This document shows, piece after piece, positions 24,538-52,504 of a stretch of DNA of 64,000 bases. The stretch's first letter is position 1. Each line of letters opens with the position of its first letter. The DNA comes from a virus, in the IMG/VR virus record IMGVR_UViG_3300048590_000360, positions 1-64,000 of that record; one strand, 5' to 3'. The notes below the pieces were generated by a model. The model was given only the letters and a program-made list of their open reading frames with translations. It was not told the DNA's origin and did no database searches. The position numbers were made by a program, and so were the translations under genes.

Positions 24538-24859
24538 GGTTTCTTGGTTTTTAAAGGTTAATTAAATTTATAAACATAACATTTCATCTCCATCGCCAGC
24601 ATCCAGCGGACACCGTAAATCTTTTTTGGTTTCATGGTTTCTATTTTTTAGTTTTGGTTTATAGTACATATACGCCATCATCTCATAAATAGTTTCAAAA
24701 AAAATAAAAAAAACTTAAAAAACTTTCAGGTATCTAAAACTCAAGCGCAAAAACTTGGCGCGTGAACAACAAATAACATTACACACCAGGTAAAAAACAA
24801 AACAGTAAGACAAAACACATATAAATATATCTTTCCTTCAGTTCCTTTCACCAGGTCAT

Positions 24860-24940
24860 TTCCTTCGGTGTCCTTCCTTCGGTGTCCTTCCTTCGGTGTC
24901 CTTCCTTCGGTGTCCTTCCTTCGGTGTCCTTCCTTCGGTG
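24860..24940. repeat. 14-bp tandem repeat, 5.8 copies (ttccttcggtgtcc), iteron-like
   Basis: Exact units at 24860, 24874, 24888, 24902 and 24916, plus a partial unit at 24930. Degenerate copies lie just upstream (24831-24859). Confidence 0.9.
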
Positions 24941-25948
24941 CATCAGCGCATTAGCTAATATTACAACAAAGTAGAACGAGTCCGCGGAACGTAGATCGTA
25001 ACGGGGTTAAACCTTTTGTTGTTATCTTTGTACCTGGCACCGGCTAAATGAATCCTTCAACGTGCTGACACTAAAGTACTCATAACATGCATTATGTTAA
25101 ATAGGGATTTTTGTAACCGATTAAAAACTAACGTGTTATATTATTGTCTATACAAGAGTTGTTTTATAACGGGTGAAAAGAAAATATAAAACATTGATTT
25201 TCAAGGATGAACAAAGCAGTGTTATTTTGTCGTGAAAATTCGTTAAAAGGTGGTGTAAAACGGGGAAAGGTGCGGACGGCTGCAATACGTTAAATGTACT
25301 GCGTTATCGTTGCGCGGTTGGTGTCGGGATATAGGTTGAATGGTTTGGCTGTGTTAAAACCGATTTAAATCATATTTTAACGTATCCTTGCTGCGGTGTA
25401 TCTTCTCGGAATGTACCCCATGCCCCTCTGAATCCCGTTTCCTTTTTCGCACATCCCCCCTTCAATGCCATATAACCCCTTGACTGGACCGTTACGTATG
25501 AGATTCAATGGGGTTATTGAGGGATACTGCAGGATGGTGTTTGAAGGAATTGGTATTGGTGAAAGGGGCTGTGTGGAATTGTGATTTGCTTGATGGGTAT
25601 GTGGGGTGTCACTGTATTATTGAATTATTTGTTTAAGTGACATTGCATAACTATGTAATTTTCTGGGGTGTTATGTGTTATTACTTAAAGTAATTGTTTA
25701 ATAGTTGTGTGTGTTGATTGGTTGTTTGGTGGTAGGCTTCCAACGGTTTGTTGGTGTTTTATTGGGGGCTGATTGACACTAAGTATGTGATTTTGAGGTA
25801 TGGTTATTTTTTGTGATTTGGTGATAGGATTCCAATAATGACGTGGTATTGAATATTTTTTTTGTTTAATATATACTATGGTGAGTTCTGCTACAAGCTA
25901 CGACACATTTCATTAGTGGGTTCATTCGTAAGCTGTTGTTGATTATAA

Positions 25949-25990
25949 TAGATATTTCAGTTTTTGTACAACGATTTTGTAAATGTCCAT
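25949..25990 (-). pseudogene. truncated copy of the first 14 codons of the tyrosine recombinase gene
   Basis: rc ATGGACATTTACAAAATCGTTGTACAAAAACTGAAATATCTA (MDIYKIVVQKLKYL), then it diverges and stops after one more codon. Confidence 0.7.
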
Positions 25991-26035
25991 GCTGTAACCC
26001 CTTATTTTATTGGTATTGTTGTTATATGGTAGTTA
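25949..26035. repeat. 87-bp exact direct repeat, copy 1 (junction plus recombinase 5' end)
   Basis: Identical to 48213..48299. Ends in ggtaGTTA, followed by a different cassette. Confidence 0.9.
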
Positions 26036-26044
26036 TCGGCAACC

Positions 26045-26407
26045 CTAAGCGGACACCACAAACAATTCAGTTCCATATAGAGAATAGAAAATATTTTGTA
26101 GTTCGTGGACATATTGTAAGTCTGTTAAAACTAATTGACAAACAAAATTGCCTTGAATAAATCTAAATTTATCATCAGCAGTTGATATACCTACATTGTT
26201 GTCTTTGTTGTAAAATTTATCTTGTATTTTGCTGTTTGTAAATCCAAAATCGGTGAGCCATTTATCAGTTAGTTTTACAGGATAAAATGGTTTGTCTAAT
26301 TCATTTTGTAAGTACATTGCGAATAAAGAGCCATCCAACTTTATAATATCTTCGTTAAAAGAAACATAGTTTCCTACTCTTATTTGTGTTGCGTTTAAAT
26401 ATTTCAT
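26045..26407 (-). CDS. hypothetical cassette protein
   Basis: 120-aa ORF with ATG start. The stop lies 7 nt from the GTTATCG junction core. Confidence 0.6.
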   Translation of the reverse strand: MKYLNATQIRVGNYVSFNEDIIKLDGSLFAMYLQNELDKPFYPVKLTDKWLTDFGFTNSKIQDKFYNKDNNVGISTADDKFRFIQGNFVCQLVLTDLQYVHELQNIFYSLYGTELFVVSA

Positions 26408-26454: not shown

Positions 26455-26541
26455 CGATAACAGCGTATAAAGTAAACCGCCAATCCCCACCCACGTAGCC
26501 AACGCAATTGTCGGCTTCCCTTATACGCAAAAGCGTTAGCG
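26455..26541. repeat. attC-like structured repeat
   Basis: Ends CGATAAC-AGC ... GCAAAAGC-GTTAGCG. Stem gcgtataa (26463-26470) / ttatacgc (26521-26528). Confidence 0.55.
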
Positions 26542-26550
26542 GAAATGATT

Positions 26551-26793
26551 TTACCCACCCATATCTACAATAGTAGGTTTAATCGGTTCACCGCCAACCG
26601 AAGCGAATAGAGATAGTTTTTTACTTGGTTTACCATCTTCAACCATCCAAGCAATTGAACCGCAACAAGGCGTTGAACCTGTCCAGTTTTTTAATTGAGT
26701 TTTACATACGTTACATTCCACCCAAAAATCACTATCCGCTAACACATTATTTGCGTCAGTGGGGGTGTTGTTTTTCAAATCGTCGTTTTGCAT
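26551..26793 (-). CDS. small zinc-ribbon-like cassette protein
   Basis: 80 aa with CNVC ... CCGS. The first ~17 codons lie inside repeat 26737..26870. Confidence 0.55.
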   Translation of the reverse strand: MQNDDLKNNTPTDANNVLADSDFWVECNVCKTQLKNWTGSTPCCGSIAWMVEDGKPSKKLSLFASVGGEPIKPTIVDMGG

Positions 26794-26870
26794 ATTATTA
26801 AAATTTAGTTTTTCAAATTAACTGTGGTGGTGTAATGCCCCACCGAACGCAAATAATCGGCACGTTAGCA
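26737..26870. repeat. attC-like structured repeat, long subfamily (134 bp, downstream ATG in loop)
   Basis: Ends CGCTAAC ... GTTAGCA. Arms attatttgcgt (26746-26756) / acgcaaataat (26847-26857) and gtgggg (26759-26764) / ccccac (26838-26843). The stop of 26865..27107 lies inside gTTAgca. Confidence 0.55.
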
Positions 26871-27107
26871 GTCAGTTTGCCCCAAATCACCGTAAGGCTT
26901 TTGAAGTGCTTTACTACTAATAGCTATTTCTCCGTTAGGAAGTTCATTGCAATGGCAAACCGAACTGCTAACAGGCGGTTGGCGCAATACTTGTTTCATC
27001 GCTTCGATTAAAGTGTGGTACATTTCAGCATCGCTTACTTTGTCATTCTCGCTTTTCGGGTATCTATTGTCTATTACCCATTGTGCTATTTCTTGTATCG
27101 TTTTCAT
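26865..27107 (-). CDS. hypothetical cassette protein
   Basis: 80-aa ORF with ATG start. Confidence 0.55.
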   Translation of the reverse strand: MKTIQEIAQWVIDNRYPKSENDKVSDAEMYHTLIEAMKQVLRQPPVSSSVCHCNELPNGEIAISSKALQKPYGDLGQTDC

Positions 27108-27171
27108 ATCAAAATTTTGTTTTAATTATTCGTACTGCGCCAACCGCCAAACCGTTATAACCAATAGGGGT

Positions 27172-27369
27172 TCAGTCCTTCGATTTAACATTTCGGTTGG
27201 CGGTTTTCTTATTTTTTTGCACACGCTCTTTGGTTTTTTCAAAACCATTAGATTTTGATTCTCGTTCCAAAATATCCTGTGCCAAGTTTTTAAAATCCGT
27301 GTTCTCATCAATGGCTCTCTTGCTCAATGATTTTACACATTCATCTGATAAATCAAGTAGTTTTTTCAT
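27172..27369 (-). CDS. ribbon-helix-helix-like small protein
   Basis: MKKLLDLSDECVKSLSKRAIDENTDFKNLAQDILERE shows a beta-alpha-alpha pattern. It is the last gene of a three-gene unit. Confidence 0.5.
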   Translation of the reverse strand: MKKLLDLSDECVKSLSKRAIDENTDFKNLAQDILERESKSNGFEKTKERVQKNKKTANRNVKSKD

Positions 27370-27805
27370 ATCCTTTATTTAGTATTTTTCTACAACTTTC
27401 CGCGTCCTTTCCGTTTGGTTGGTGTTTTAGTTTCCACAAAGAACTACTTGCGTAATGTTTTGCCAAACTTTCGCACTTTTCAAATGGAACAATAGTATAG
27501 ATATACGAAGTAATCTCTATACTGCTTTCGGTATTACCGCCAAACATAGCTTCGCTTTCTTCAACACAACAAGATAAAACTGGTTCACTTTCATTATCTT
27601 CAAATTTTATCACTGAAAGTTCTTTAATTACATCACTTATTGTAGTAGATTTTAATTGTACATTCTTTTCTTTTTTATCAAACCAATGAATGTAATTACG
27701 ATGTAGTGTAGTAAAATCACGTTTTTTCAAAAGCTCAATAGCTTCATTCCTACTTTTAGTAGTTGATTTTAGGTAATGCTGATATACTATTTCTTCTTGT
27801 GTCAT
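27353..27805 (-). CDS. hypothetical cassette protein
   Basis: 150-aa ORF that overlaps the downstream RHH-like gene by 17 nt. Confidence 0.6.
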   Translation of the reverse strand: MTQEEIVYQHYLKSTTKSRNEAIELLKKRDFTTLHRNYIHWFDKKEKNVQLKSTTISDVIKELSVIKFEDNESEPVLSCCVEESEAMFGGNTESSIEITSYIYTIVPFEKCESLAKHYASSSLWKLKHQPNGKDAESCRKILNKGYEKTT

Positions 27806-27816
27806 AATCGTTATTT

Positions 27817-28107
27817 TTAAAGGGTTTTAAAGTAGTTAAGTAATTGATTAAAATACTTCCCGTAATACTCAATAGCATAGCCATTCATATAAGCAGGTTT
27901 TACACTTTCTCTTTGTGAGGCAACCACATTAATTCCTAAAGTTTTTGCTGCAAAATCAACAAAGTTTTCAAGTTTGGTGTCGAGCCATTTAATATCACAA
28001 TCCCTAAATTCTCCTTTATTTAATTGGTTTATTATTTTAGTAATCGGGTCTATTAAAGAAACTTCGATAATAAACTGGTCAATTGCTGTGTTGTTTGTTG
28101 CTTTCAT
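27817..28107 (-). CDS. hypothetical cassette protein
   Basis: 96-aa ORF. TATATTTG box 24 nt upstream. Confidence 0.6.
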   Translation of the reverse strand: MKATNNTAIDQFIIEVSLIDPITKIINQLNKGEFRDCDIKWLDTKLENFVDFAAKTLGINVVASQRESVKPAYMNGYAIEYYGKYFNQLLNYFKTL

Positions 28108-28131
28108 TTTGTTTCGTTTTTAATTCTGATA

Positions 28132-28139
28132 CAAATATA
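28132..28139 (-). promoter_or_regulatory. -7 promoter box (rc TATATTTG)
   Basis: Overlaps the first unit of the 3 x 9-bp repeat at 28135..28161. Confidence 0.5.
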
Positions 28140-28161
28140 TACCATATATACGATATATACA
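28135..28161. repeat. 3 x 9-bp tandem repeat (ATATATAC-N), operator-like
   Basis: atatatac at 28135, 28144 and 28153, with an exact 9-bp period. Confidence 0.8.
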
Positions 28162-28291
28162 AGTAAAAGTTTCAAATATTTTAAAACTAACTGATTTTCA
28201 AAGAGAATAATTTTTAAATCCCTCCCTAAAAAAATAAGAAAACTGCTGTTTCTGCTCCGAATTTGGCTTTGTGCTAAACAATCCCTACTGG

Positions 28292-28346
28292 TTATAACAG
28301 CACATTGGCGGCATTAAAACGACCGCCAATCTGCATCACGTTGTAT
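28292..28346. repeat. attC-like structured repeat (55 bp)
   Basis: Ends TTATAAC-AGC ... GCATCAC-GTTGTAT. Stem attggcgg (28304-28311) / ccgccaat (28323-28330). Confidence 0.55.
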
Positions 28347-28494
28347 GCAATTATGGCGCAAAAGACCAGGTAAATAGCCAAATATTTTTAGTAAATAGTG
28401 AGTTTAGGATTAGAAAATGACTTAATTTTTGTCAAGCCTTGCAAAGTAGATTTGCTGAAAAGTATTTTCAAAGCGAATTACGCTAAAAGGCTTG

Positions 28495-28502
28495 CAAAGG
28501 TA
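28495..28502 (-). promoter_or_regulatory. -7 promoter box (rc TACCTTTG) with TTTG 20 nt upstream, inside an ORF-free cassette
   Basis: rc TTTGACTTTGTCTTTTTTTTCTAATACCTTTG. No ORF of 20 aa or more lies downstream before repeat 28292..28346. Confidence 0.4.
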
Positions 28503-28688
28503 TTAGAAAAAAAAGACAAAGTCAAATTTTTATTCTAATACGATCATAAACTGCTATTTATTAAAGAGATGGCTTGGTTTGTAAAAGACTAATCTTATCC
28601 CTTTGGGGCATAAGACCAATATTTTTCAATCATTTAACTAGGTTTTTTGCGGCATAACTGGGACTGTTTTCATAACTTAGCCGAGTTA

Positions 28689-28772
28689 GAATAACAGCAC
28701 ACAACAACAGGTTTGTTCAATGCCTGCCGCCGGCGCAACACAGGCACTGCACAAACCTGCTATACGTTAGGT
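28689..28772. repeat. attC-like structured repeat
   Basis: Ends GAATAAC-AGC ... GCTATAC-GTTAGGT. Stem caggtttgt (28708-28716) / acaaacctg (28751-28759) plus an inner tgcctg/caggca pair. Confidence 0.6.
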
Positions 28773-28813
28773 GCAATAAAAAATAAATTTCCCACCGCAC
28801 CAAACTAACAACA

Positions 28814-29080
28814 TTAATCCTTCTTTTTAGAGTATTGAAAAACCAATTGGTTGGCAATGTGGTTAAACTCTAAATTGTTTTTGTCATCGCCTGTAATCTT
28901 ATTGAAAAGATGCGTAGGCATAATGTTTGCCAACGCGTGGAAAAAATGCGTAAGGTTATCGCCTTCTTGTAATTCTTGTTGGTCAATGTGAAAATCACTT
29001 TCGCTATCTTCATCAAAGAGTTCCGCAATTTTTCCACTTAACATTGCCGCATAATGTAAATGTTTTTCGGTCTGTGCCAT
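28814..29080 (-). CDS. hypothetical cassette protein
   Basis: 88-aa ORF with ATG start. Confidence 0.55.
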   Translation of the reverse strand: MAQTEKHLHYAAMLSGKIAELFDEDSESDFHIDQQELQEGDNLTHFFHALANIMPTHLFNKITGDDKNNLEFNHIANQLVFQYSKKKD

Positions 29081-29128
29081 AATTGAAATTTGTTTTAAAA
29101 GCCCACGCTAAATTTATTTTTTACAGAC

Positions 29129-29227
29129 ACCTAACAGCAGGTAGGCAAAATGCCGCTATGAGCCTGAGTGCTTTGATATTTACATTTGTGGTAAGCGTCA
29201 CTATCGCCTACCTGCAAACCGTTAGCG
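29129..29227. repeat. attC-like structured repeat
   Basis: Ends ACCTAAC-AGC ... GCAAAC-C-GTTAGCG. Perfect 10-bp stem gcaggtaggc (29137-29146) / gcctacctgc (29206-29215). Confidence 0.6.
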
Positions 29228-29234
29228 GAAAATG

Positions 29235-29570
29235 CTACATCCACTCATCCAACGGAACATTTTTAGTTTTAAATTTTTTGCCTTGAACTGTTAGCACGTA
29301 GTCAAAATTTGCTCTTTGCCAATTACTTTGGTGTATCAACCCCATTCTAACCAATCGAAACAAAATAGACGAATTAAATGTGAACTCACCTTTTGCAGAA
29401 CAACAAGTAACTGTTGATGTACAAGATTGTGTTATCAATTGCCATCCATTTTGAAGACAAAAAACAATCATATTTTGTTTTGGAGTTAGTTTTAATTTAA
29501 CCGCATCATCCGCTAACACGTGTTTTGCGTCAGGCGGGGTTTCGTGGTTAATTGCAGTTTGTGTTTTCAT
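29235..29570 (-). CDS. hypothetical cassette protein
   Basis: 111-aa ORF. The N-terminal ...PPDAKHVLADD is encoded inside repeat 29511..29643. Confidence 0.55.
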   Translation of the reverse strand: MKTQTAINHETPPDAKHVLADDAVKLKLTPKQNMIVFCLQNGWQLITQSCTSTVTCCSAKGEFTFNSSILFRLVRMGLIHQSNWQRANFDYVLTVQGKKFKTKNVPLDEWM

Positions 29571-29643
29571 AATTTAATTTTGTTTAAGTTGAAAGTTTGC
29601 GGTTTTCAAACCCGCCCGAACGCAAAGCACCTTAACGTTGTAG
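29511..29643. repeat. attC-like structured repeat, long subfamily (133 bp, downstream ATG in loop)
   Basis: Ends CGCTAAC ... AAC-GTTGTAG. Arms gtgttttgcg (29520-29529) / cgcaaagcac (29621-29630) and ggcggg (29533-29538) / cccgcc (29611-29616). Confidence 0.5.
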
Positions 29644-29655
29644 GCAATTGCCTTG

Positions 29656-29889
29656 CTATAAAAGCGTATTGCCACATTTTCCGCAAAAGTCTTGAACTTT
29701 ACTGTTTACCCTGTTATTTTCGCAATCGCAAGGCAACTGTTCGCTTCGCCCTACAACAGGGGCTATATGTAATACTTGGATCATTGCTTCGTAAATAACT
29801 TCAAGTTGATTTGAGTTAAATTCTTGCTCAACGCTTGTAAAGTTTCCAAATGTATTTAATGCTTCTAATAATATTTTTTCTTTATCCAT
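29656..29889 (-). CDS. small cassette protein with C-terminal CxC...CxxC
   Basis: 77 aa ending ...LPCDCENNRVNSKVQDFCGKCGNTLL. Confidence 0.5.
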   Translation of the reverse strand: MDKEKILLEALNTFGNFTSVEQEFNSNQLEVIYEAMIQVLHIAPVVGRSEQLPCDCENNRVNSKVQDFCGKCGNTLL

Positions 29890-29940
29890 TTCTATTAAGT
29901 TTTATCGTTAATAAATCGTACTACATATAGCCCCAAACCG

Positions 29941-30204
29941 TTAGCTGCAAGCTGGCAGACTAATCCACGCAATAACGCTTCCGTTTGTATGTTGTGGTCG
30001 CATATCATTAACCCAAACAATTACCCGATTATCTTCAAGCCTTAAATGACATACATCCATTTTACCATAGTCGGTTAATATTAGCACTGGTTTACCAAAT
30101 TCGGGTAATTGTTTTTCTACTGGAATCCAGCCAGCAGCTAACACAGTATTGCCGACAATTGCGGGTTCTGTGGTAGGTTCAACTTTTTGTTTTTTATTGT
30201 TCAT
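29941..30204 (-). CDS. DUF551-like cassette protein
   Basis: GWIPVEKQLPEFGKPVLILTD ... VIAWISLP resembles DUF551 (match by eye only). The stop lies inside gTTAgct. Confidence 0.5.
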   Translation of the reverse strand: MNNKKQKVEPTTEPAIVGNTVLAAGWIPVEKQLPEFGKPVLILTDYGKMDVCHLRLEDNRVIVWVNDMRPQHTNGSVIAWISLPACS

Positions 30205-30269
30205 TTGTGCAAATTTTGAAGTTTTTTAATTCTAATTCCGCAACTGCGGCAATACTCGGAACGTTAGCA
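30136..30269. repeat. attC-like structured repeat, long subfamily (134 bp, downstream ATG in loop)
   Basis: Ends AGCTAAC ... GTTAGCA. Arms agtattgccg (30145-30154) / cggcaatact (30247-30256). Confidence 0.5.
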
Positions 30270-30275
30270 CCAATA

Positions 30276-30509
30276 CTACGAGTGTGCTGCAAAAACCTGA
30301 TTATCCCTTAATCGTATTTGTTCTCTTATCTTTTCGGCTAATTGTTCTACTTCGTCAGAATAAGAACATATAACAGTTCCGTCCTCTTTTTTTAAGGCTA
30401 TAGGCATTGCGTTTGCGTATAAGTCAAATAGTGCCTTAAATAGTTCTTTTCTGTGGCTATCATTCAAAATAGCTTCTCTTTGTTTTTGGTAATATTTTTG
30501 GTCTTTCAT
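30276..30509 (-). CDS. hypothetical cassette protein
   Basis: 77-aa ORF. The conserved leader AGTACGGATTATTAAC lies upstream. Confidence 0.5.
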   Translation of the reverse strand: MKDQKYYQKQREAILNDSHRKELFKALFDLYANAMPIALKKEDGTVICSYSDEVEQLAEKIREQIRLRDNQVFAAHS

Positions 30510-30543
30510 TCTATTTATATTTTGTTGTTAATAATCCGTACTG

Positions 30544-30608
30544 GTGCTAACAGCAAATAAGCAAAACTCCGCTATCGCTACGCTTCGCCTATTTGCAAAC
30601 CGTTAGCG
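30544..30608. repeat. attC-like structured repeat (65 bp)
   Basis: Ends GTGCTAAC-AGC ... GCAAAC-C-GTTAGCG. Stem gcaaataagc (30553-30562) / gcctatttgc (30587-30596), with one A-C (G-T on the minus strand). The stop of 30603..30920 lies inside gTTAgcg. Confidence 0.6.
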
Positions 30609-30920
30609 GTCATTGCCGCCAAGCCCAAGTCCCTTAATTATCCTTTCCATAAAGTCGCCACTTTTTTTCACATCGCAAGTTTCGTTAAACCATTTTTCGT
30701 CCTCTTCATTTTCAGGAAAAACAATGTTGCACCTCATAGCAGTTTCCCTTAGAAGCGGCAACGAACCGCTAACATCGGGTTGGGCTAAATTTTTATTGGC
30801 TACGAGTTGCGCGTATTCGGAAAGGATAATTGATACTTTCCCTTTCGTGTAGAACTCTTCCCCTTCATCATTAGTATAGTCTGGTGTCCACATTTTCAAA
30901 ACTTCCATTTCTCTTGTCAT
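30603..30920 (-). CDS. hypothetical cassette protein
   Basis: 105-aa ORF with ATG start. Confidence 0.55.
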   Translation of the reverse strand: MTREMEVLKMWTPDYTNDEGEEFYTKGKVSIILSEYAQLVANKNLAQPDVSGSLPLLRETAMRCNIVFPENEEDEKWFNETCDVKKSGDFMERIIKGLGLGGNDR

Positions 30921-31022
30921 GCTATTTATATTTAGTCGTTAATAATCCGCCAATAAAAACTTCGCCAACCCGTCCACCGTTATAGCACATTAAAACGATG
31001 CTATAACAGCGCATAAGAGAAG

Positions 31023-47462: not shown

Positions 47463-48254
47463 TTAGATTGGTAAATTCACTTTTGAAAGCAACTGATTTG
47501 AAACGTGCGTGTATATTTCCGTGGTTTTTATATTTGAGTGTCCTGCAATCTTTTGAATAATCCTTGTGTCTGTACCTGATTCAAGCATAGCGGTAAATGA
47601 TGAATGCCTGAGAAGGTGGAAATGATAATCCTTGCCGATGTATTTTTTGACAATTTGGTTGCAACTTGCAGATGAATATTGATTACTGAATTGCCCGTTA
47701 AAAAGGTATTCTGTTGGTTTATATTCTTTGTAGTATTCTCTTAGCGTGGTGAGTATTGTTTGGCTTAGTGGCACGATTCTATCCTTTCTACCTTTGGCGT
47801 TTTTGATGTAAATTATCATTCTACTGGAATCAATGTCGGTTATCTTTAGGTTGATTATTTCTGAAACTCTAAGTCCTACACTAAATGCCAATGATATAAT
47901 TGCTTTATGCTTTAAGTTTTCGATGTTATTGATAGACTTAATAAGGTGTTCTCTATCAATTACTCTTGGTAGTTTCTTTTCGGAACGGGGTCTGTTAAAA
48001 TGAACCTTGTCGTATTTTTTGTTTAATCCGTATTTGTATAAGAATCTTATTGCGTTAATAATTTGATTCTGTTGTGATACTGATTTGAACGGATAATTGT
48101 CTAAATACTGCTGAAACTCTTTTGCGGAAACTCTTGATATATGTACTTTACTTTTTGATAGGTATTCGTCAATATAATATAAGTAAACTTTTTGTGTGTT
48201 TTCTGAATAATTTAGATATTTCAGTTTTTGTACAACGATTTTGTAAATGTCCAT
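47463..48254 (-). CDS. tyrosine recombinase/integrase, short XerC/D-like (263 aa)
   Basis: Catalytic signature GLRVSE (Arg I), KGRKDRIVPL, HLLRHS (His-x-x-Arg), GHSNIKTTEIYTHV (His ... Tyr). No obvious extra insertion of the IntI type. Confidence 0.9.
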   Translation of the reverse strand: MDIYKIVVQKLKYLNYSENTQKVYLYYIDEYLSKSKVHISRVSAKEFQQYLDNYPFKSVSQQNQIINAIRFLYKYGLNKKYDKVHFNRPRSEKKLPRVIDREHLIKSINNIENLKHKAIISLAFSVGLRVSEIINLKITDIDSSRMIIYIKNAKGRKDRIVPLSQTILTTLREYYKEYKPTEYLFNGQFSNQYSSASCNQIVKKYIGKDYHFHLLRHSSFTAMLESGTDTRIIQKIAGHSNIKTTEIYTHVSNQLLSKVNLPI

Positions 48255-48299
48255 GCTGTAACCCCTTATTTTATTGGTATTGTTGTTATATGGTAGTTA
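48213..48299. repeat. 87-bp exact direct repeat, copy 2 (recombinase codons 1-14 plus 45-nt upstream junction)
   Basis: Identical to 25949..26035. Ends in ggtaGTTA of the GTTAGGT core (48296-48302). Confidence 0.9.
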
Positions 48300-48308
48300 G
48301 GTGCAATG

Positions 48309-48485
48309 CTAAACGACATACACCAACTCAATCTGAAATTTACCATTTTCTCGGTCAATAAATCTTTCTGCATCTTCAACTGTATCAAAGTAGTCAGCAA
48401 GGTATGCTTCTTTACTCCATCCGTAGGCTTCACCACAATAATAAGTTTGAGCCTCAAAATCTTTTACTACATATTTCTTTTCCAT
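48309..48485 (-). CDS. hypothetical cassette protein (58 aa)
   Basis: The ORF-track GTG start 48515 lies inside repeat 48514..48597, so I trimmed to ATG 48485 (MEKKYVVKDFE...). Confidence 0.45.
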   Translation of the reverse strand: MEKKYVVKDFEAQTYYCGEAYGWSKEAYLADYFDTVEDAERFIDRENGKFQIELVYVV

Positions 48486-48513
48486 TTTTATTTGAATTTG
48501 TGAAAAGCACTGC

Positions 48514-48597
48514 ACCTAACAGCGGTTTTGTGCAAGTTGCCCAACCGGCTCAATGCCCACGCTCCGCAGCCTGACACAAAGCCGCAAAACGTTGGCA
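48514..48597. repeat. attC-like structured repeat
   Basis: Ends ACCTAAC-AGC ... GCAAAAC-GTTGGCA. Stem gcggttttgtg (48522-48532) / cacaaagccgc (48575-48585), with one T-G. Confidence 0.6.
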
Positions 48598-48603
48598 GTA
48601 ATG

Positions 48604-49203
48604 CTACGAGAACACCGACCAACTACCATCTTTCTTATTTATTTTCATTACGCCTTTCTTTGACAAATCTTTATCGTATGGATTTTCAAGAAACAAAAAC
48701 TCTGTACTTTCCATTGATTTTAAAGAGTTACAATAAAATTCGCCTGTTTCAATGTTGTAGTAATTGCTATCAACTGAATAAATGCAACTACCCTTTTTTA
48801 TGTAAGGGCTTTTAAATTGGTCAAATTCTTTTTTCTCAACTCCGTTTTTATCAATTATGCACCAGCGACCTTCTAAATGTTTTCTTTGTAATTCAAGTTC
48901 TTTTCGACTTTTATTTGGATAGCATTTTTTAATAAAATCATAATCATAAATTGCTTCTACATATTTAAGAAGCATAAAATAATCTTGTTTTATATCACCC
49001 CCAAATCCACCAACACGATAAAGCGATTTGCTTATTAATTCACCATTTTTTGTAAGGCAAACAAAATCATTACTATTATTATTCCACTCATTCAAATAAT
49101 CTTGATTAACCTGAATAGGGGATAACTGCAAAGCACTACTGCCAACATCTGCTTTATGCAAGTGGGGCTGAACTGCTAAATTGAACATTTGTAATTCTAT
49201 CAT
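48604..49203 (-). CDS. hypothetical cassette protein
   Basis: 199-aa ORF with ATG start. The stop lies 6 nt from the repeat end. Confidence 0.65.
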   Translation of the reverse strand: MIELQMFNLAVQPHLHKADVGSSALQLSPIQVNQDYLNEWNNNSNDFVCLTKNGELISKSLYRVGGFGGDIKQDYFMLLKYVEAIYDYDFIKKCYPNKSRKELELQRKHLEGRWCIIDKNGVEKKEFDQFKSPYIKKGSCIYSVDSNYYNIETGEFYCNSLKSMESTEFLFLENPYDKDLSKKGVMKINKKDGSWSVFS

Positions 49204-49265
49204 CTTTTGTACTTTATTTAAACATTAGTTTTTCAAATTCCCCACCTGACATAAAGCAGTGGGCG

Positions 49266-49472
49266 TTATGCTCCATTGCTACGGAAGTACTCAGAATTAG
49301 CATTTGAGATAACATTTTTATTCTTTTCTTCCTTCGCTTTGAAATAAGAAACAAGAATACTTTCAACCGTGTTATTAAAACTTGGTCTGTTTGTTTCTTC
49401 CCGTTCTTTTTCTATTGCTTCAACTAACCAATCGTTTTTGTCAGTTAGTTTTAATGATATTCTCTTACTCAT
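49266..49472 (-). CDS. ribbon-helix-helix-like protein, paralog a
   Basis: MSKRISLKLTDKNDWLVEAIEKEREETNRPSFNNTVESILVSYF. About 90 percent nt identity to 51266..51451. The stop lies inside gTTAtgc. Confidence 0.6.
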   Translation of the reverse strand: MSKRISLKLTDKNDWLVEAIEKEREETNRPSFNNTVESILVSYFKAKEEKNKNVISNANSEYFRSNGA

Positions 49473-49473
49473 A

Positions 49474-49773
49474 TTACCACCAAATTCTTAATCCAATACA
49501 CCAATTTTCTTCTGCATCCTTATATGAATACATATTAGATAACAAACCAAGTTCTTCTATTTTAACTTGTGCTTTTTCTAAAGAACGCCTCAATAAACCA
49601 TCCATATTTGGTGCGTTACCAATATGCAATTCATTTTTACCTTCTTTAGCAGCATCAACCAATCTTTTCTCTAAATTAATTAATTTGCTGTTAGCCATTT
49701 CTTCAATAGCTTGTTCAACAGTCTGCTTTGTGTTTTTCGCAGTAATTTCTTTAAGTTTATCTGTTGTAATCAT
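49474..49773 (-). CDS. hypothetical cassette protein
   Basis: 99-aa ORF. Its stop lies 1 nt before the RHH-like gene ATG. TACCTTTG box 28 nt upstream. Confidence 0.6.
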   Translation of the reverse strand: MITTDKLKEITAKNTKQTVEQAIEEMANSKLINLEKRLVDAAKEGKNELHIGNAPNMDGLLRRSLEKAQVKIEELGLLSNMYSYKDAEENWCIGLRIWW

Positions 49774-49801
49774 AATTATCTTGTTTTATTAATTTATACG
49801 T

Positions 49802-49809
49802 CAAAGGTA
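49802..49809 (-). promoter_or_regulatory. -7 promoter box (rc TACCTTTG)
   Basis: rc TTATTTGAAACAAAAGTATTACCTTTGACG, 28 nt upstream of ATG 49773. Confidence 0.45.
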
Positions 49810-49942
49810 ATACTTTTGTTTCAAATAACCTAATCTTTTTTCAATTATTTTTTAAAGCGTTGATAATCAGCCACCACACAAAAGAATAAAAATGTTTGTA
49901 GTGCTTCGATTGAAAGAATGTACTAAATTGACCGCAACGAGA

Positions 49943-50038
49943 GCATAACACGTGCTATAAGCAAGTTTGCCAATAACATTTGTGCTAAATTTGAACATTT
50001 CTGCAAGGCAAACCTGCTCATAGCACCATACGTTGTGC
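49943..50038. repeat. attC-like structured repeat
   Basis: Ends GCATAAC-ACG ... CCATAC-GTTGTGC. 20-bp stem gtgctataagcaagtttgcc (49952-49971) / ggcaaacctgctcatagcac (50007-50026) with two A-C (G-T on the minus strand). Confidence 0.6.
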
Positions 50039-50042
50039 GTAA

Positions 50043-50258
50043 TTAAAGTATCTCTACCAATTTACCACTTTCCAATATTTTGGTTAGGCAATTGCCACAC
50101 CTATTTTGTACTGCCGATTCTCCAATAACTTGAAACCTAATCAAGTCATTTAATTTATGATATTCGCCACATCCTAAGCAATTATAACTACGCACAACAT
50201 TATGTATAGCACATTGCTTTTCTACCTTTTTGCTAAATAATTTCTTAATCCAGTTCAT
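50043..50258 (-). CDS. small zinc-ribbon-like cassette protein
   Basis: 71 aa with CAIH...CLGC...CGNC. Confidence 0.5.
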   Translation of the reverse strand: MNWIKKLFSKKVEKQCAIHNVVRSYNCLGCGEYHKLNDLIRFQVIGESAVQNRCGNCLTKILESGKLVEIL

Positions 50259-50322
50259 ATTGTTTTTAATTTAGGTTAGTTGTGGCAACGTGCCATACAC
50301 TCGTCCGTTAGCCGTAATGCCG

Positions 50323-50565
50323 TTAGACATCATCATCACCTTTGACAAGTTCCAACTGACCGACATAGAAATCGCCACAATCTTTTTTATATGCAATGTT
50401 TTTTTGCTTAAATGTTTCTTCTAAATCAGCTTGACATAAGCAATAATCAAGTTCAAGCGTATTGTAATAGTCCTCTTTTATTGGCAAAAAACCAAAGTGA
50501 GTTTCAAATTCTCGTGGCGTTCCTATTTCTACTTCGCCTCTATTTATTACTACGATATGGCACAT
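50323..50565 (-). CDS. hypothetical cassette protein (80 aa)
   Basis: The ORF-track start 50649 would read through repeat 50568..50663, so I trimmed to ATG 50565 (MCHIVVINRGE...). The stop lies inside gTTAgac. Confidence 0.5.
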   Translation of the reverse strand: MCHIVVINRGEVEIGTPREFETHFGFLPIKEDYYNTLELDYCLCQADLEETFKQKNIAYKKDCGDFYVGQLELVKGDDDV

Positions 50566-50567
50566 AC

Positions 50568-50663
50568 GGCTAACAGCGTGTTTATGCAAGCGGGCGGACA
50601 GCTTGCGGTTAATATTTAAGTTCGTGCTATGCCCGCCTGACATAAACACGCAAAACGTTAGGC
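50568..50663. repeat. attC-like structured repeat
   Basis: Ends GGCTAAC-AGC ... GCAAAAC-GTTAGGC (the canonical integron core). Stems gcgtgtttatg (50576-50586) / cataaacacgc (50641-50651) and gcgggc (50590-50595) / gcccgc (50631-50636). Confidence 0.65.
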
Positions 50664-50669
50664 GTAATG

Positions 50670-50891
50670 CTAATCAACCGAAATTAATTTAGCATAGACC
50701 ATTTTTGTATCGAAATGTTCCTCCAAAACTTTAGTTATTTCTTCTATTGAAATATCATCAGCATTTTTAGGGTTAAATCCATATTCCCATTTACAATATT
50801 CATCATCTATTGTAATGATAAAAGCACTACGCCTAACAGCACCTAAATCGCTATTGGCTGTTTTGTGGTTAATTGATTTTTCGTGTTCCAT
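50670..50891 (-). CDS. hypothetical cassette protein
   Basis: 73-aa ORF with ATG start. Confidence 0.5.
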   Translation of the reverse strand: MEHEKSINHKTANSDLGAVRRSAFIITIDDEYCKWEYGFNPKNADDISIEEITKVLEEHFDTKMVYAKLISVD

Positions 50892-50972
50892 TGTTACTTT
50901 ATTTTAAGTTGATAATTCTTTGTTTTAAATCGCCAACAGCGTTTAGCTGCGGAACCGTTATAAAACAGTTTG

Positions 50973-51194
50973 CTATTCAAATTTATCACTCCAACATTTC
51001 ATACTGCAACACGGGGCATACTTGCTATTCATCGGCTTACCGCAATCGCAAACCGATTTTATAACATGGGCTAAACCCAATGCTTGCATTATCGTTTCAT
51101 AATAAAATCCCAAATTACATTCTTCATTTTGTACTCCTTTTTCATATACTTTAAACAGTAGTTTCTCTATTTGCTTTCTTTTTTGCTTTGCCAT
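50973..51194 (-). CDS. small Cys-rich cassette protein
   Basis: 73 aa ending CDCGKPMNSKYAPCCSMKCWSDKFE. Confidence 0.5.
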   Translation of the reverse strand: MAKQKRKQIEKLLFKVYEKGVQNEECNLGFYYETIMQALGLAHVIKSVCDCGKPMNSKYAPCCSMKCWSDKFE

Positions 51195-51265
51195 TTCAAT
51201 TAAATTTTGTTGTTAATAGTCGCACTGTGTTTAGCCCCGTTCCGTTATGCTCCATTGCTACGGAA

Positions 51266-51451
51266 CTACTCCGAATTAGCATTTGTGGTAACATTTTTAT
51301 TCTTTTCTTCCTTCGCTTTAAAATAAGAAACAAGAATACTTTCAACAGTATTGTTAAAACTCGGTCTATTGGTTTGCTCCTGTTCTTTATTTATCGCTTC
51401 AACTAACCAATCGTTTTTGTCGGTTAGTTTTAATGATATTCTTTTACTCAT
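51266..51451 (-). CDS. ribbon-helix-helix-like protein, paralog b
   Basis: MSKRISLKLTDKNDWLVEAINKEQEQTNRPSFNNTVESILVSYF. Shorter C-terminus than paralog a. Confidence 0.6.
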   Translation of the reverse strand: MSKRISLKLTDKNDWLVEAINKEQEQTNRPSFNNTVESILVSYFKAKEEKNKNVTTNANSE

Positions 51452-51650
51452 TTGTTTTCACCTTAATTTCCCACCATTCGTAAAAATCCATTCCTGATTT
51501 ACCTAAACTTTCACCAACAATTGCTGGTTCATCTGTCATTCCTTCCATGTAACCATCATTATATGCTTCATCAGCAATATTTTTAATGAAATCAGTAGCA
51601 TGTTGTTCGCTCAAACCGAGTTTTACAAGTAATTCAATTCTATTTTTCAT
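51444..51650 (-). CDS. hypothetical cassette protein
   Basis: 68-aa ORF overlapping the RHH-like gene start. A 7-bp inverted repeat atcttta/taaagat lies immediately upstream (51651-51678). Confidence 0.55.
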   Translation of the reverse strand: MKNRIELLVKLGLSEQHATDFIKNIADEAYNDGYMEGMTDEPAIVGESLGKSGMDFYEWWEIKVKTNE

Positions 51651-51715
51651 ATCTTTAAATGTTGCTTATCATAAAGATTGAAACGCAATGAAAATACAAA
51701 AGGTTACAACCAAAA

Positions 51716-52504
51716 TCAGATTCCTTTAATTTTATTCATTTCAGCATACTGAATGAGTTGTTCTTCCCTGATAGATATACCAAGTAATGCAAGAACACCC
51801 ATTGCTATTTTATTGAAAGATTCTTCTGGTGCGTCAATATCAATAGATGATGATGAATCATACACCGGTCTTTCATTAGATATGATATACCCCCATACAG
51901 GGGTTTGCGGCTCCCGTAAATAAGTCAAAAACACATCCTGAATACCTTTCTTCGGATATATCTGAATGTATTCGCCAAACAATGTACATATCGGAAATTC
52001 CACTGTAGGCATTCTTATAGAGGAATCAAGATACGTAGCAACCTCATCATCTCTTACAAGGTTCACGTTTTTTTCGTAAGTTATGACGGGTCTTGTTTCT
52101 GTATTATTTGGACTATACCCACATATATTTGAATCTTTATCACCAGAATAAACTTTATATACAACCCTTAACGATGAAAAATGGAGGTACTTCCCTAACT
52201 TTGTTCCTGTTTTATCTTTGGTAGTTCCATCCGGAACGGTTATTTTACCTTCAGAGTTAGGGGATAATGGTGCGGTAACTTTCAAATGTCTGAGATTATC
52301 AATAATCTTAGTAGTCATCTCGTAAGCATATCGTGGAACGGGTCTGCCTGGTTGGTATTCTTCTTCGTTACCATACTGCTTAGAAGTCCATTCCCATAAT
52401 GCCTGTCTTACAATACTATTGAACCTTACAGGGGGTATAGTGCCTTTCCCGTTTTTATTTGAAACGGTGTCAACAAATTGTTTGAAGTTATTAATATTTA
52501 TCAT
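51716..52504 (-). CDS. hypothetical virion structural protein
   Basis: 262-aa ORF, the last gene of the structural operon before array A. Confidence 0.65.
   Translation of the reverse strand: MININNFKQFVDTVSNKNGKGTIPPVRFNSIVRQALWEWTSKQYGNEEEYQPGRPVPRYAYEMTTKIIDNLRHLKVTAPLSPNSEGKITVPDGTTKDKTGTKLGKYLHFSSLRVVYKVYSGDKDSNICGYSPNNTETRPVITYEKNVNLVRDDEVATYLDSSIRMPTVEFPICTLFGEYIQIYPKKGIQDVFLTYLREPQTPVWGYIISNERPVYDSSSSIDIDAPEESFNKIAMGVLALLGISIREEQLIQYAEMNKIKGI

Follow-up and report, generated by a model that had tools for sequence, protein, structure and literature searches.

In integrons, the attC sites carry extrahelical bases on the 3' arm of the recombinogenic bottom strand, and cleavage by tyrosine recombinases takes place where the spacer begins on its 5' side, adjoining the arm that is bound. 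According to PMC7790495, integron integrases are thought to have gained the ability to recombine single-stranded hairpins by acquiring the I2 helix. Clusters of attC sites lacking an integron integrase (CALINs) have been described in phages, including Polaribacter phage P12002L, and IntI1 can recombine one of the P12002L sites (Qi et al. 2023, PMC9892861). For the Polaribacter phages Freya, Bartlau et al. 2021 (PMC8776804) take the integrase to indicate that the phages may be temperate and make no mention of cassettes. A search of the full-text literature revealed the phage CALINs and no description of a recombinase-linked, I2-less phage system, an absence that is not proof of novelty.

The DNA analysed here, referred to as the window, is a stretch of 64,000 nucleotides (positions 1 to 64,000 of IMG/VR record IMGVR_UViG_3300048590_000360). 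It is a phage genome with terminase, portal protein and virion proteins (identified with PHROGs), has a GC content of ~36% and carries nearly all of its genes on the minus strand; Rfam and tRNA scans of the window returned nothing. One small gene is present in two copies, and the reading that we favour, with a probability of about 80%, is that this gene ends two cassettes of a phage-encoded, integron-like array that is shuffled by an adjacent recombinase at the sequence AAC.

Alignment of the two copies on the minus strand, copy A (49264..49472) and copy B (51243..51451), was performed with MAFFT, a repeat finder (family D1) and blastn (E = 2e-79) and gave 91% identity over 209 nt with no gaps, close to the ~90% over ~208 bp claimed in an earlier note on this DNA, and fixed the boundaries at these positions. 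The flanks of the two copies show no relation to each other. In gene (minus) sense both copies end in ...GTAGCAATGGAGCATAACG and split right after it, into GCCCACTGC... (shared G included) versus GGAACGGGGC..., so that the divergence directly past AAC proposed in the earlier note is seen in both, with no gradual decay. The other boundary of the identity is situated 1 base past the ATG (49472 and 51451). In copy A (ORF 49266-49472, 68 aa) the 5' half-site GCATAAC contains the stop codon TAA and the C of AAC is found at 49265 (a G on the plus strand), while copy B (ORF 51266-51451, 61 aa, junction at 51244) has an earlier stop, its last ~20 nt being untranslated yet conserved. The genes located 5' of the copies, also on the minus strand, encode partner proteins of 99 aa (copy A, 49474..49773, its stop 1 nt ahead of the small gene's start) and 68 aa (copy B, 51444..51650, an 8-nt overlap with the start of the small gene), which are unrelated as had been suggested (BLASTP E = 15); apart from weak matches to PHROG families whose function is unknown, partner A resembles no protein family. 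Between the copies, at a distance of 1979 bp from each other, there are five cassettes or small genes that are not related, which contradicts the tandem duplication that had been raised as an alternative.

The duplicated gene belongs to a region, array 2 (48296-51250), of small minus-strand ORFs with imperfect hairpins of 84-192 nt between them, and 5' of each array gene the layout is 5'-ATTGCnnATAAC|G...stem-loop...TGTTAnnGCAGT-3'. The hairpins were detected with a duplex-energy scan, an ungapped arm-matching scan having missed them; the motif CCTGACAYAAA picks up one hairpin subfamily only. Cassette A opens with a hairpin at 49943..50038 (5' GCACAAC|G ... GTTATGC 3'). In the hairpin downstream of copy A (49140..49271) the half-site GCATAAC is part of the small gene's cassette and the body is part of the next one, and the hairpin downstream of copy B (51059..51250), with a 9-bp stem (GGGCTAAAC/GTTTAGCCC) and a long loop containing an ATG at 51194, is the weakest of the set. 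The site scan further identified hairpins at 48514..48597 and 50831..50963, the best-folding one at 50568..50663 (z = -4.8) and one at 50192..50313 that is 76% similar to Polaribacter phage P12002S and in which the 5' half is certain and the 3' arm was placed by means of the related locus L001 (3352-3473); all of these are on the minus strand. Cassette B has no recognisable upstream hairpin and only a half-site-like TTTGGTTGTAAC|C within 51651-51715, between partner gene B and a gene for a virion structural protein (51716-52504). This cassette may represent the array's oldest end, now decayed, or else belong to the phage backbone.

In four cassette ORFs the start codon is found within a hairpin loop (49203, 50258, 50891 and 51194), which makes the 3' arms of those four hairpins coding sequence, and a public gene call on the same genome accepts such in-loop starts for at least the ORFs of 199 aa and 71 aa. 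This public assembly of the same phage (L090, JGI contig Ga0498929_0005927) is interrupted within array 2, immediately ahead of copy B, which is what one would expect if assembly is disturbed by the gene duplication or by heterogeneous cassettes. An exact-protein search with the recombinase returned only a fragment of this same genome, interrupted within the array.

Adjoining array 2 is a minus-strand gene (47463..48254) for an Xer/IntI-like tyrosine recombinase of 263 aa, which matches Pfam Phage_integrase and SAM_4 and contains the RHR and Y motifs. In NCBIfam the best matches are XerA_Arch, with 169 bits, and TIGR02249 (integrase_gron), with 150 bits split over two stretches; both fall below their cutoffs, which for TIGR02249 is 265. 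The protein is collinear, end to end, with Pyrococcus XerA (4A8E), and when compared with Vibrio IntI4/VchIntIA (2A3V) it has 26 aa where the latter has 74, showing that the IntI-specific insert, the I2 alpha-helix region, is absent. More than 5,500 matches at E <= 1e-20 make up the family; the best 120 of these are 263-287 aa long and are named 'XerD' where the source gives a name. Between the array and the recombinase gene lies a simple attI-like site (48255..48298, minus strand) reading ...CACCTAAC|TACCATATAACAACAATACCAATAAAATAAGGGGTTACAGC and then the recombinase ATG; two arms were not resolved in it.

The only other recombinase sequence in the window is a remnant of 14 codons at the end of a second, larger array with the same hairpin type (array 1, 26455..30785, minus strand, at least nine sites). 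This array is closed by a duplicate of the attI-like site together with the first 14 recombinase codons (25949..26051, minus strand, 94% identity), where near-perfect identity starts at TAAC|TACCATATAAC, joined to a different last cassette, and where the 14 codons (MDIYKIVVQKLKYL) are followed by a stop. Array 1 and the remnant look like a duplicated platform from which the recombinase gene has been lost. Directly downstream of the remnant, ~1.4 kb (24538-25948) contains no ORF that reaches 90 aa. A 35-nt mini-hairpin (30976-31010, GCGCTGTTATAGCATCGTTTTAATGTGCTATAACGG in gene sense) marks the upstream end of array 1 and is 100% identical to two copies in the viral contig L005 (4124-4158 and 7610-7644).

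To describe the hairpins, consensus logos were built from 123 of them, taken from the window and related loci. In gene sense the 5' half reads A-T(95%)-T-G-C-n-n-A-T-A-A-C | G(92%)-n-T-T-n and the 3' half T(90%)-G-T-T-A-n-n-G-C-A-G-T, with a stem of 17-22 bp and a loop between the halves. Pairing of ATTGC with GCAGT in the outer segments, which includes a conserved T.G wobble, gives a 12-bp outer arm, which is followed by an asymmetric spacer of ~5 nt on the 5' side versus 1-2 nt on the 3' side. No extrahelical bases were found on the 3' arm of the surveyed hairpins; bulges, where present, are on the 5' arm, as the single T in the ATG-T-CAGG subfamily. There is a clear strand bias, the gene-sense strand giving the better fold in 113 of the 123 hairpins (mean -33.9 versus -27.2 kcal/mol for the complement). 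RNAalifold analysis of 22 hairpins revealed compensatory double changes at 12 out of 18 pairs and three positions with conserved G.T (G.U-type) pairs, which are possible on the gene-sense strand only.

When examining recombinase homologues in viral contigs, at 30% to 70% identity, almost every one was found to be preceded, on its own strand, by a hairpin array of this type that ends a few tens of nt before the recombinase start codon, and the last junction before the gene takes the form xxTAAC|(T/A)nnnAT-ATA.... Homologues in bacterial genomes, of Bacteroidota and others and at most 53% identical, showed no such arrays. Among cultured phages, homologues are encoded by Polaribacter and Cellulophaga phages, including Polaribacter phages Freya_1-10, where the protein (39% identity) is annotated as 'integrase'. 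A comparison of the few kb around this gene in seven of the ten Freya isolates (1, 2, 5, 6, 8, 9 and 10; L091-L104) revealed aligned flanks of at least 98.2% identity, 100% in several comparisons, and within these few kb all differences between the isolates are whole cassettes in the DNA immediately preceding the integrase. Freya_1, 2, 5, 9 and 10 form a nested series, Freya_8 is without one internal block and Freya_6 has an extra cassette. At each breakpoint ...AAC| is joined either to the attI-like ACCCCTATAACAACAAT...ATG of the integrase or to the next hairpin, and the microhomology around the junctions is 3-7 nt only, which points to site-specific rather than homologous recombination. The seven isolates differ from each other by 0 to ~4.9 kb of small-gene cassettes, inserted exactly at the attI-like site, which covers most or all of the published range of Freya genome sizes (44.0-48.9 kb).

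These observations bear on an alternative that we consider unlikely, namely that the hairpins are ordinary attC sites (a CALIN), acquired by the phage and serviced by the integron integrase of a host, the neighbouring recombinase being a lysogeny integrase or a dimer resolvase. Against it stand the order of array, attI-like site and recombinase, conserved across homologues of 30-70% identity, and the insertion of cassettes at precisely the site that adjoins the start of the recombinase gene. That Bartlau et al. take the Freya integrase as a temperate sign (PMC8776804), that CALINs are reported in phages including P12002L, and that IntI1 recombined a P12002L hairpin of the same type (PMC9892861), speak for the alternative and suggest that host integrases could also act on these sites; however, the present hairpins lack the 3'-arm extrahelical bases and have an extended 12-bp arm, and all genes are inverted compared with canonical cassettes. 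Phage P12002S has the same hairpin type on the gene-sense strand and no integrase annotated in the 18 kb inspected, as the CALIN explanation would have it, but the nearest bacterial homologues of the recombinase, in Bacteroidota and other genomes, are without arrays.

The position of the junction was further addressed by gathering homologues of the small gene from viral contigs and metagenomes, the search in other contexts that the earlier note had proposed. Covering both subfamilies of the gene and ~40 metagenomic loci, it revealed at least 26 different following sequences, all splitting after AAC: the tail ...GCAATGGAGCATAAC is found in ~27 loci, followed by at least 17 different sequences that each split immediately past AAC, and the tail of the second subfamily, ...GCATTTGCCGATAAC, is followed by at least nine, again splitting at the same place. 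The base after AAC is G before hairpins and T before an attI-like sequence (L051 and L053). The same ~70-nt tail terminates an unrelated gene in L010, and it is conserved while untranslated in copy B and in L001. Two closely related contigs have a 100% identical multi-cassette block of 2305 nt with AAC at both ends (L001:3623-5927 and L062:1623-3927), and a single cassette of 331 nt, likewise AAC-bounded and 100% identical, occupies different array positions in L059 (4703-5033) and L062 (5121-5451). From these blocks the unit of exchange is deduced to be a hairpin body with its downstream gene or genes, from AAC to AAC. In another case L021:3992-4165 and L026:1-174 are 100% identical up to their end ...GTATAAC|, after which L021 continues with the attI-like site and recombinase and L026 with a hairpin. 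Since AAC is present in all partner sites, the crossover can be placed only within or just after these 3 nt. The many-context tails, the AAC-bounded identical blocks and the Freya cassettes bear out the earlier suggestion, made from the paralog pair, of a recombination junction at the AAC|G end, and judging from these comparisons of sequence the AAC end is a true one.

A junction of this kind could also arise if the hairpins were small mobile palindromic elements (of MITE, REP or IS200 type) that insert at a preferred target after gene ends, with AAC as the point of insertion. Hairpin families are common to unrelated genes, and hairpin-only homology with sharp limits at AAC and GTTA does occur between otherwise unrelated contexts, but what near-identical genomes exchange is hairpin plus gene or genes, AAC to AAC, and not lone hairpins; a junction to the non-hairpin attI-like site at the same AAC, and the lack of any HUH or other transposase among the array ORFs and other window ORFs scanned, make this explanation very improbable. 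If a conserved gene had simply been duplicated, or had undergone homologous recombination, with limits set by coding selection, both limits would fall near ORF ends as seen, but this is hardly credible given that the break falls on the same nucleotide in dozens of contexts, that the final ~20 nt are conserved without being translated in copy B and L001 and the same tail is present on the unrelated L010 gene, that the copies are not in tandem and that the Freya junctions have 3-7 nt of microhomology only.

In some of the older cassette pairs (87-88% identity) homology is lost within the hairpin that precedes the cassette or at its 3' box. A second junction at the 3' box as the main route, suggested by HSPs starting at TGTTAT..., was considered and rejected, as the pairs in question are those of 87-88% identity, while pairs of 94-100% identity start at the AAC of the 5' box, and as the hairpins of the window and L001 are homologous with compensatory changes. 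We read the loss of homology within the upstream hairpin as fast, compensated divergence of the hairpin, and an exchange at the 3' box may take place occasionally.

The boundary at the ATG is of another kind. The earlier note had claimed sharp ends at both AAC|G and ATG; the former holds as a junction, and the latter holds as a limit of homology and not as a site-specific junction, as a variable partner gene is situated between a conserved promoter and the conserved small gene. The 5' UTR or promoter region of cassette A (49774..49942, minus strand) is ~90% identical to its L001 equivalent, and a promoter part at 49753-49852 is common to L002-L004 despite different partner genes. When cassette A is compared with L001 as a whole, the hairpins are homologous but diverged, with compensatory changes, the partner genes are unrelated and the small genes are 88% identical up to the AAC. 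In the metagenomic loci the small gene's ATG is found behind at least 15 sequences that are unrelated to each other. With conserved promoter and small gene bracketing differing partner genes, the alignments indicate that the ATG boundary is modular and not a recombinase site, and the simplest idea would be that partners are swapped by homologous exchange within the conserved flanks. A perfect inverted repeat of 17 nt was also found in this cassette, between its 5' UTR (49880-49896, gene-sense AACATTTTTATTCTTTT) and coding sequence towards the 3' end of the small gene (49311-49327 and, in copy B, 51290-51306; AAAAGAATAAAAATGTT). L001, L088 and L089 also have the UTR element, and the repeat could be a long-range RNA pairing or an operator.

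Searches with the small protein in Pfam, NCBIfam, PHROG and PDB sequences, including a profile search of the latter, gave no match. An AlphaFold (AF2) model built from 30 homologues has moderate confidence (pLDDT 68) and shows an extended N-terminus followed by helices 11-26 and 32-65, a predicted shape that fits a ribbon-helix-helix monomer. Foldseek with this model returned nothing significant (best E-value 1.3), with a few RHH-type proteins among the weak matches, and the label 'RHH-like' is therefore plausible but unproven. The small gene and its partners are coupled or overlapping and have the conserved promoter in common, and one may speculate that the small protein autoregulates this promoter or is an antitoxin-like partner; the partner genes, unrelated to each other, match no toxin family in Pfam or PHROG. 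Comparison of the cassette proteins with PHROG and Pfam gave no informative functions.

According to the integron-like reading, each cassette would in gene sense consist of a hairpin body, a 5' UTR, one or two genes and a conserved half-site (ATTGCnnATAAC), the last of which would pair with the far side of the hairpin of the next cassette. When single-stranded, the gene-sense strand would fold so that the base of the hairpin mimics a recombinase core site, made up of the 12-bp outer arm, the asymmetric unpaired spacer and the inner stem. The 263-aa Xer-like recombinase would be the catalyst on this single-stranded substrate, cutting the 5' arm within or just after AAC, and the cut strand would be exchanged either with a second hairpin or with the attI-like site that immediately precedes the recombinase start codon; by analogy with integrons, the product is presumed to be resolved by replication. 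Cassettes would in this way be excised, reordered and inserted beside the recombinase gene, with new ones entering at the downstream end of the transcription unit. The homology of copies A and B would then stop at AAC because a different cassette begins beyond it, and at the ATG because the partner gene, enclosed by the conserved promoter and the small gene, can be exchanged freely.

Read on the plus strand the window shows the layout of a classical integron: the recombinase gene is directed leftward and followed by the attI-like site ending in G|TT and then by the cassettes, each of which ends in a hairpin R''...R' G|TT. The minus strand folds best, has the AAC cut on the 5' arm and corresponds to the 'bottom' strand of integrons. 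Such a cut on the 5' arm agrees with the chemistry of tyrosine recombinases.

Extending this to other genomes, it seems rather probable that phages of Bacteroidota, and probably others, carry an integron analogue of their own, with an I2-less Xer-like recombinase, folded hairpins and cargo on the folding strand. If so, recombination of cassettes through single-stranded hairpins would not need the IntI-specific domain, the system would either be sister to the integrons or have arisen independently of them, and it could be a major driver of accessory-gene turnover in phage genomes. A widespread Xer-type phage system lacking I2 would bear on the proposed origin of hairpin recombination in integron integrases, would explain the CALINs reported from phages as well as the presence of so-called integrases in flavobacterial phages that are apparently lytic, and would give a mechanism for the rapid gain and loss of small accessory genes, possibly for anti-defence or host takeover. 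The Freya isolates would offer a testable laboratory model.

When comparing the locus with integrons, the features in common are a cassette array with imperfect hairpins bearing invariant AAC...GTT boxes and a crossover at AAC/GTT, a simple attI-like site beside a tyrosine recombinase gene that points away from the 'top strand' direction of the array, entry of new cassettes at attI, one strand that folds better, hairpin families spread across unrelated genes and recurring two-gene modules with their own promoter, reminiscent of toxin-antitoxin cassettes. Taking integrons in the sense of IntegronFinder, the attC-type hairpins with AAC/GTT boxes are present and their structure is more conserved than their sequence (logos, n = 123; 12 of 18 pairs covary), and an attI beside the integrase with insertion there and crossover at AA|C (G|TT) is found at the resolution of the 3 nt of AAC (Freya, L021/L026, the window site and its duplicate). 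In contrast to an IntI with its I2 domain, the phage recombinase is a protein of 263 aa that lacks the I2 helix region, and in place of extrahelical bases on the 3' (double-prime) arm the asymmetry resides in the spacer (~5 versus 1-2 nt), accompanied by conserved G.T pairs and the 12-bp outer arm. Instead of an ORF followed by its own attC on the coding strand, with Pc near attI, every gene of the phage array is on the folding ('bottom') strand and co-directional with the recombinase, so that the hairpin precedes its gene. A further difference is that the system is borne by phages, probably those of Bacteroidota.

With Xer/dif systems, and with pdif modules and IMEX, the locus has in common a recombinase most similar to XerA, XerC and XerD. 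The outer arm TGCnnATAA resembles the XerC arm of dif, cut at the boundary between arm and spacer. The dif and pdif sites are double-stranded cores of 28 bp with two conserved 11-bp arms and a spacer of 6-8 bp, whereas the phage site has one conserved arm only, the second being supplied by a variable, covarying stem, and would thus exist only when folded. Unlike these modules, those of the phage are ordered arrays next to the recombinase gene.

In hairpin type the locus resembles the phage CALINs, as the same kind of hairpin is found in Polaribacter phages P12002L and P12002S (PMC9892861). Formally the arrays qualify as CALINs themselves, having two or more attC-type sites with no IntI nearby, but this is because the neighbouring recombinase is not an IntI, and the label hides the linked recombinase. 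In the published description the phage CALINs are not linked to a dedicated phage recombinase, to an attI-like site or to inverted genes, whereas the array described here has its own adjacent recombinase.
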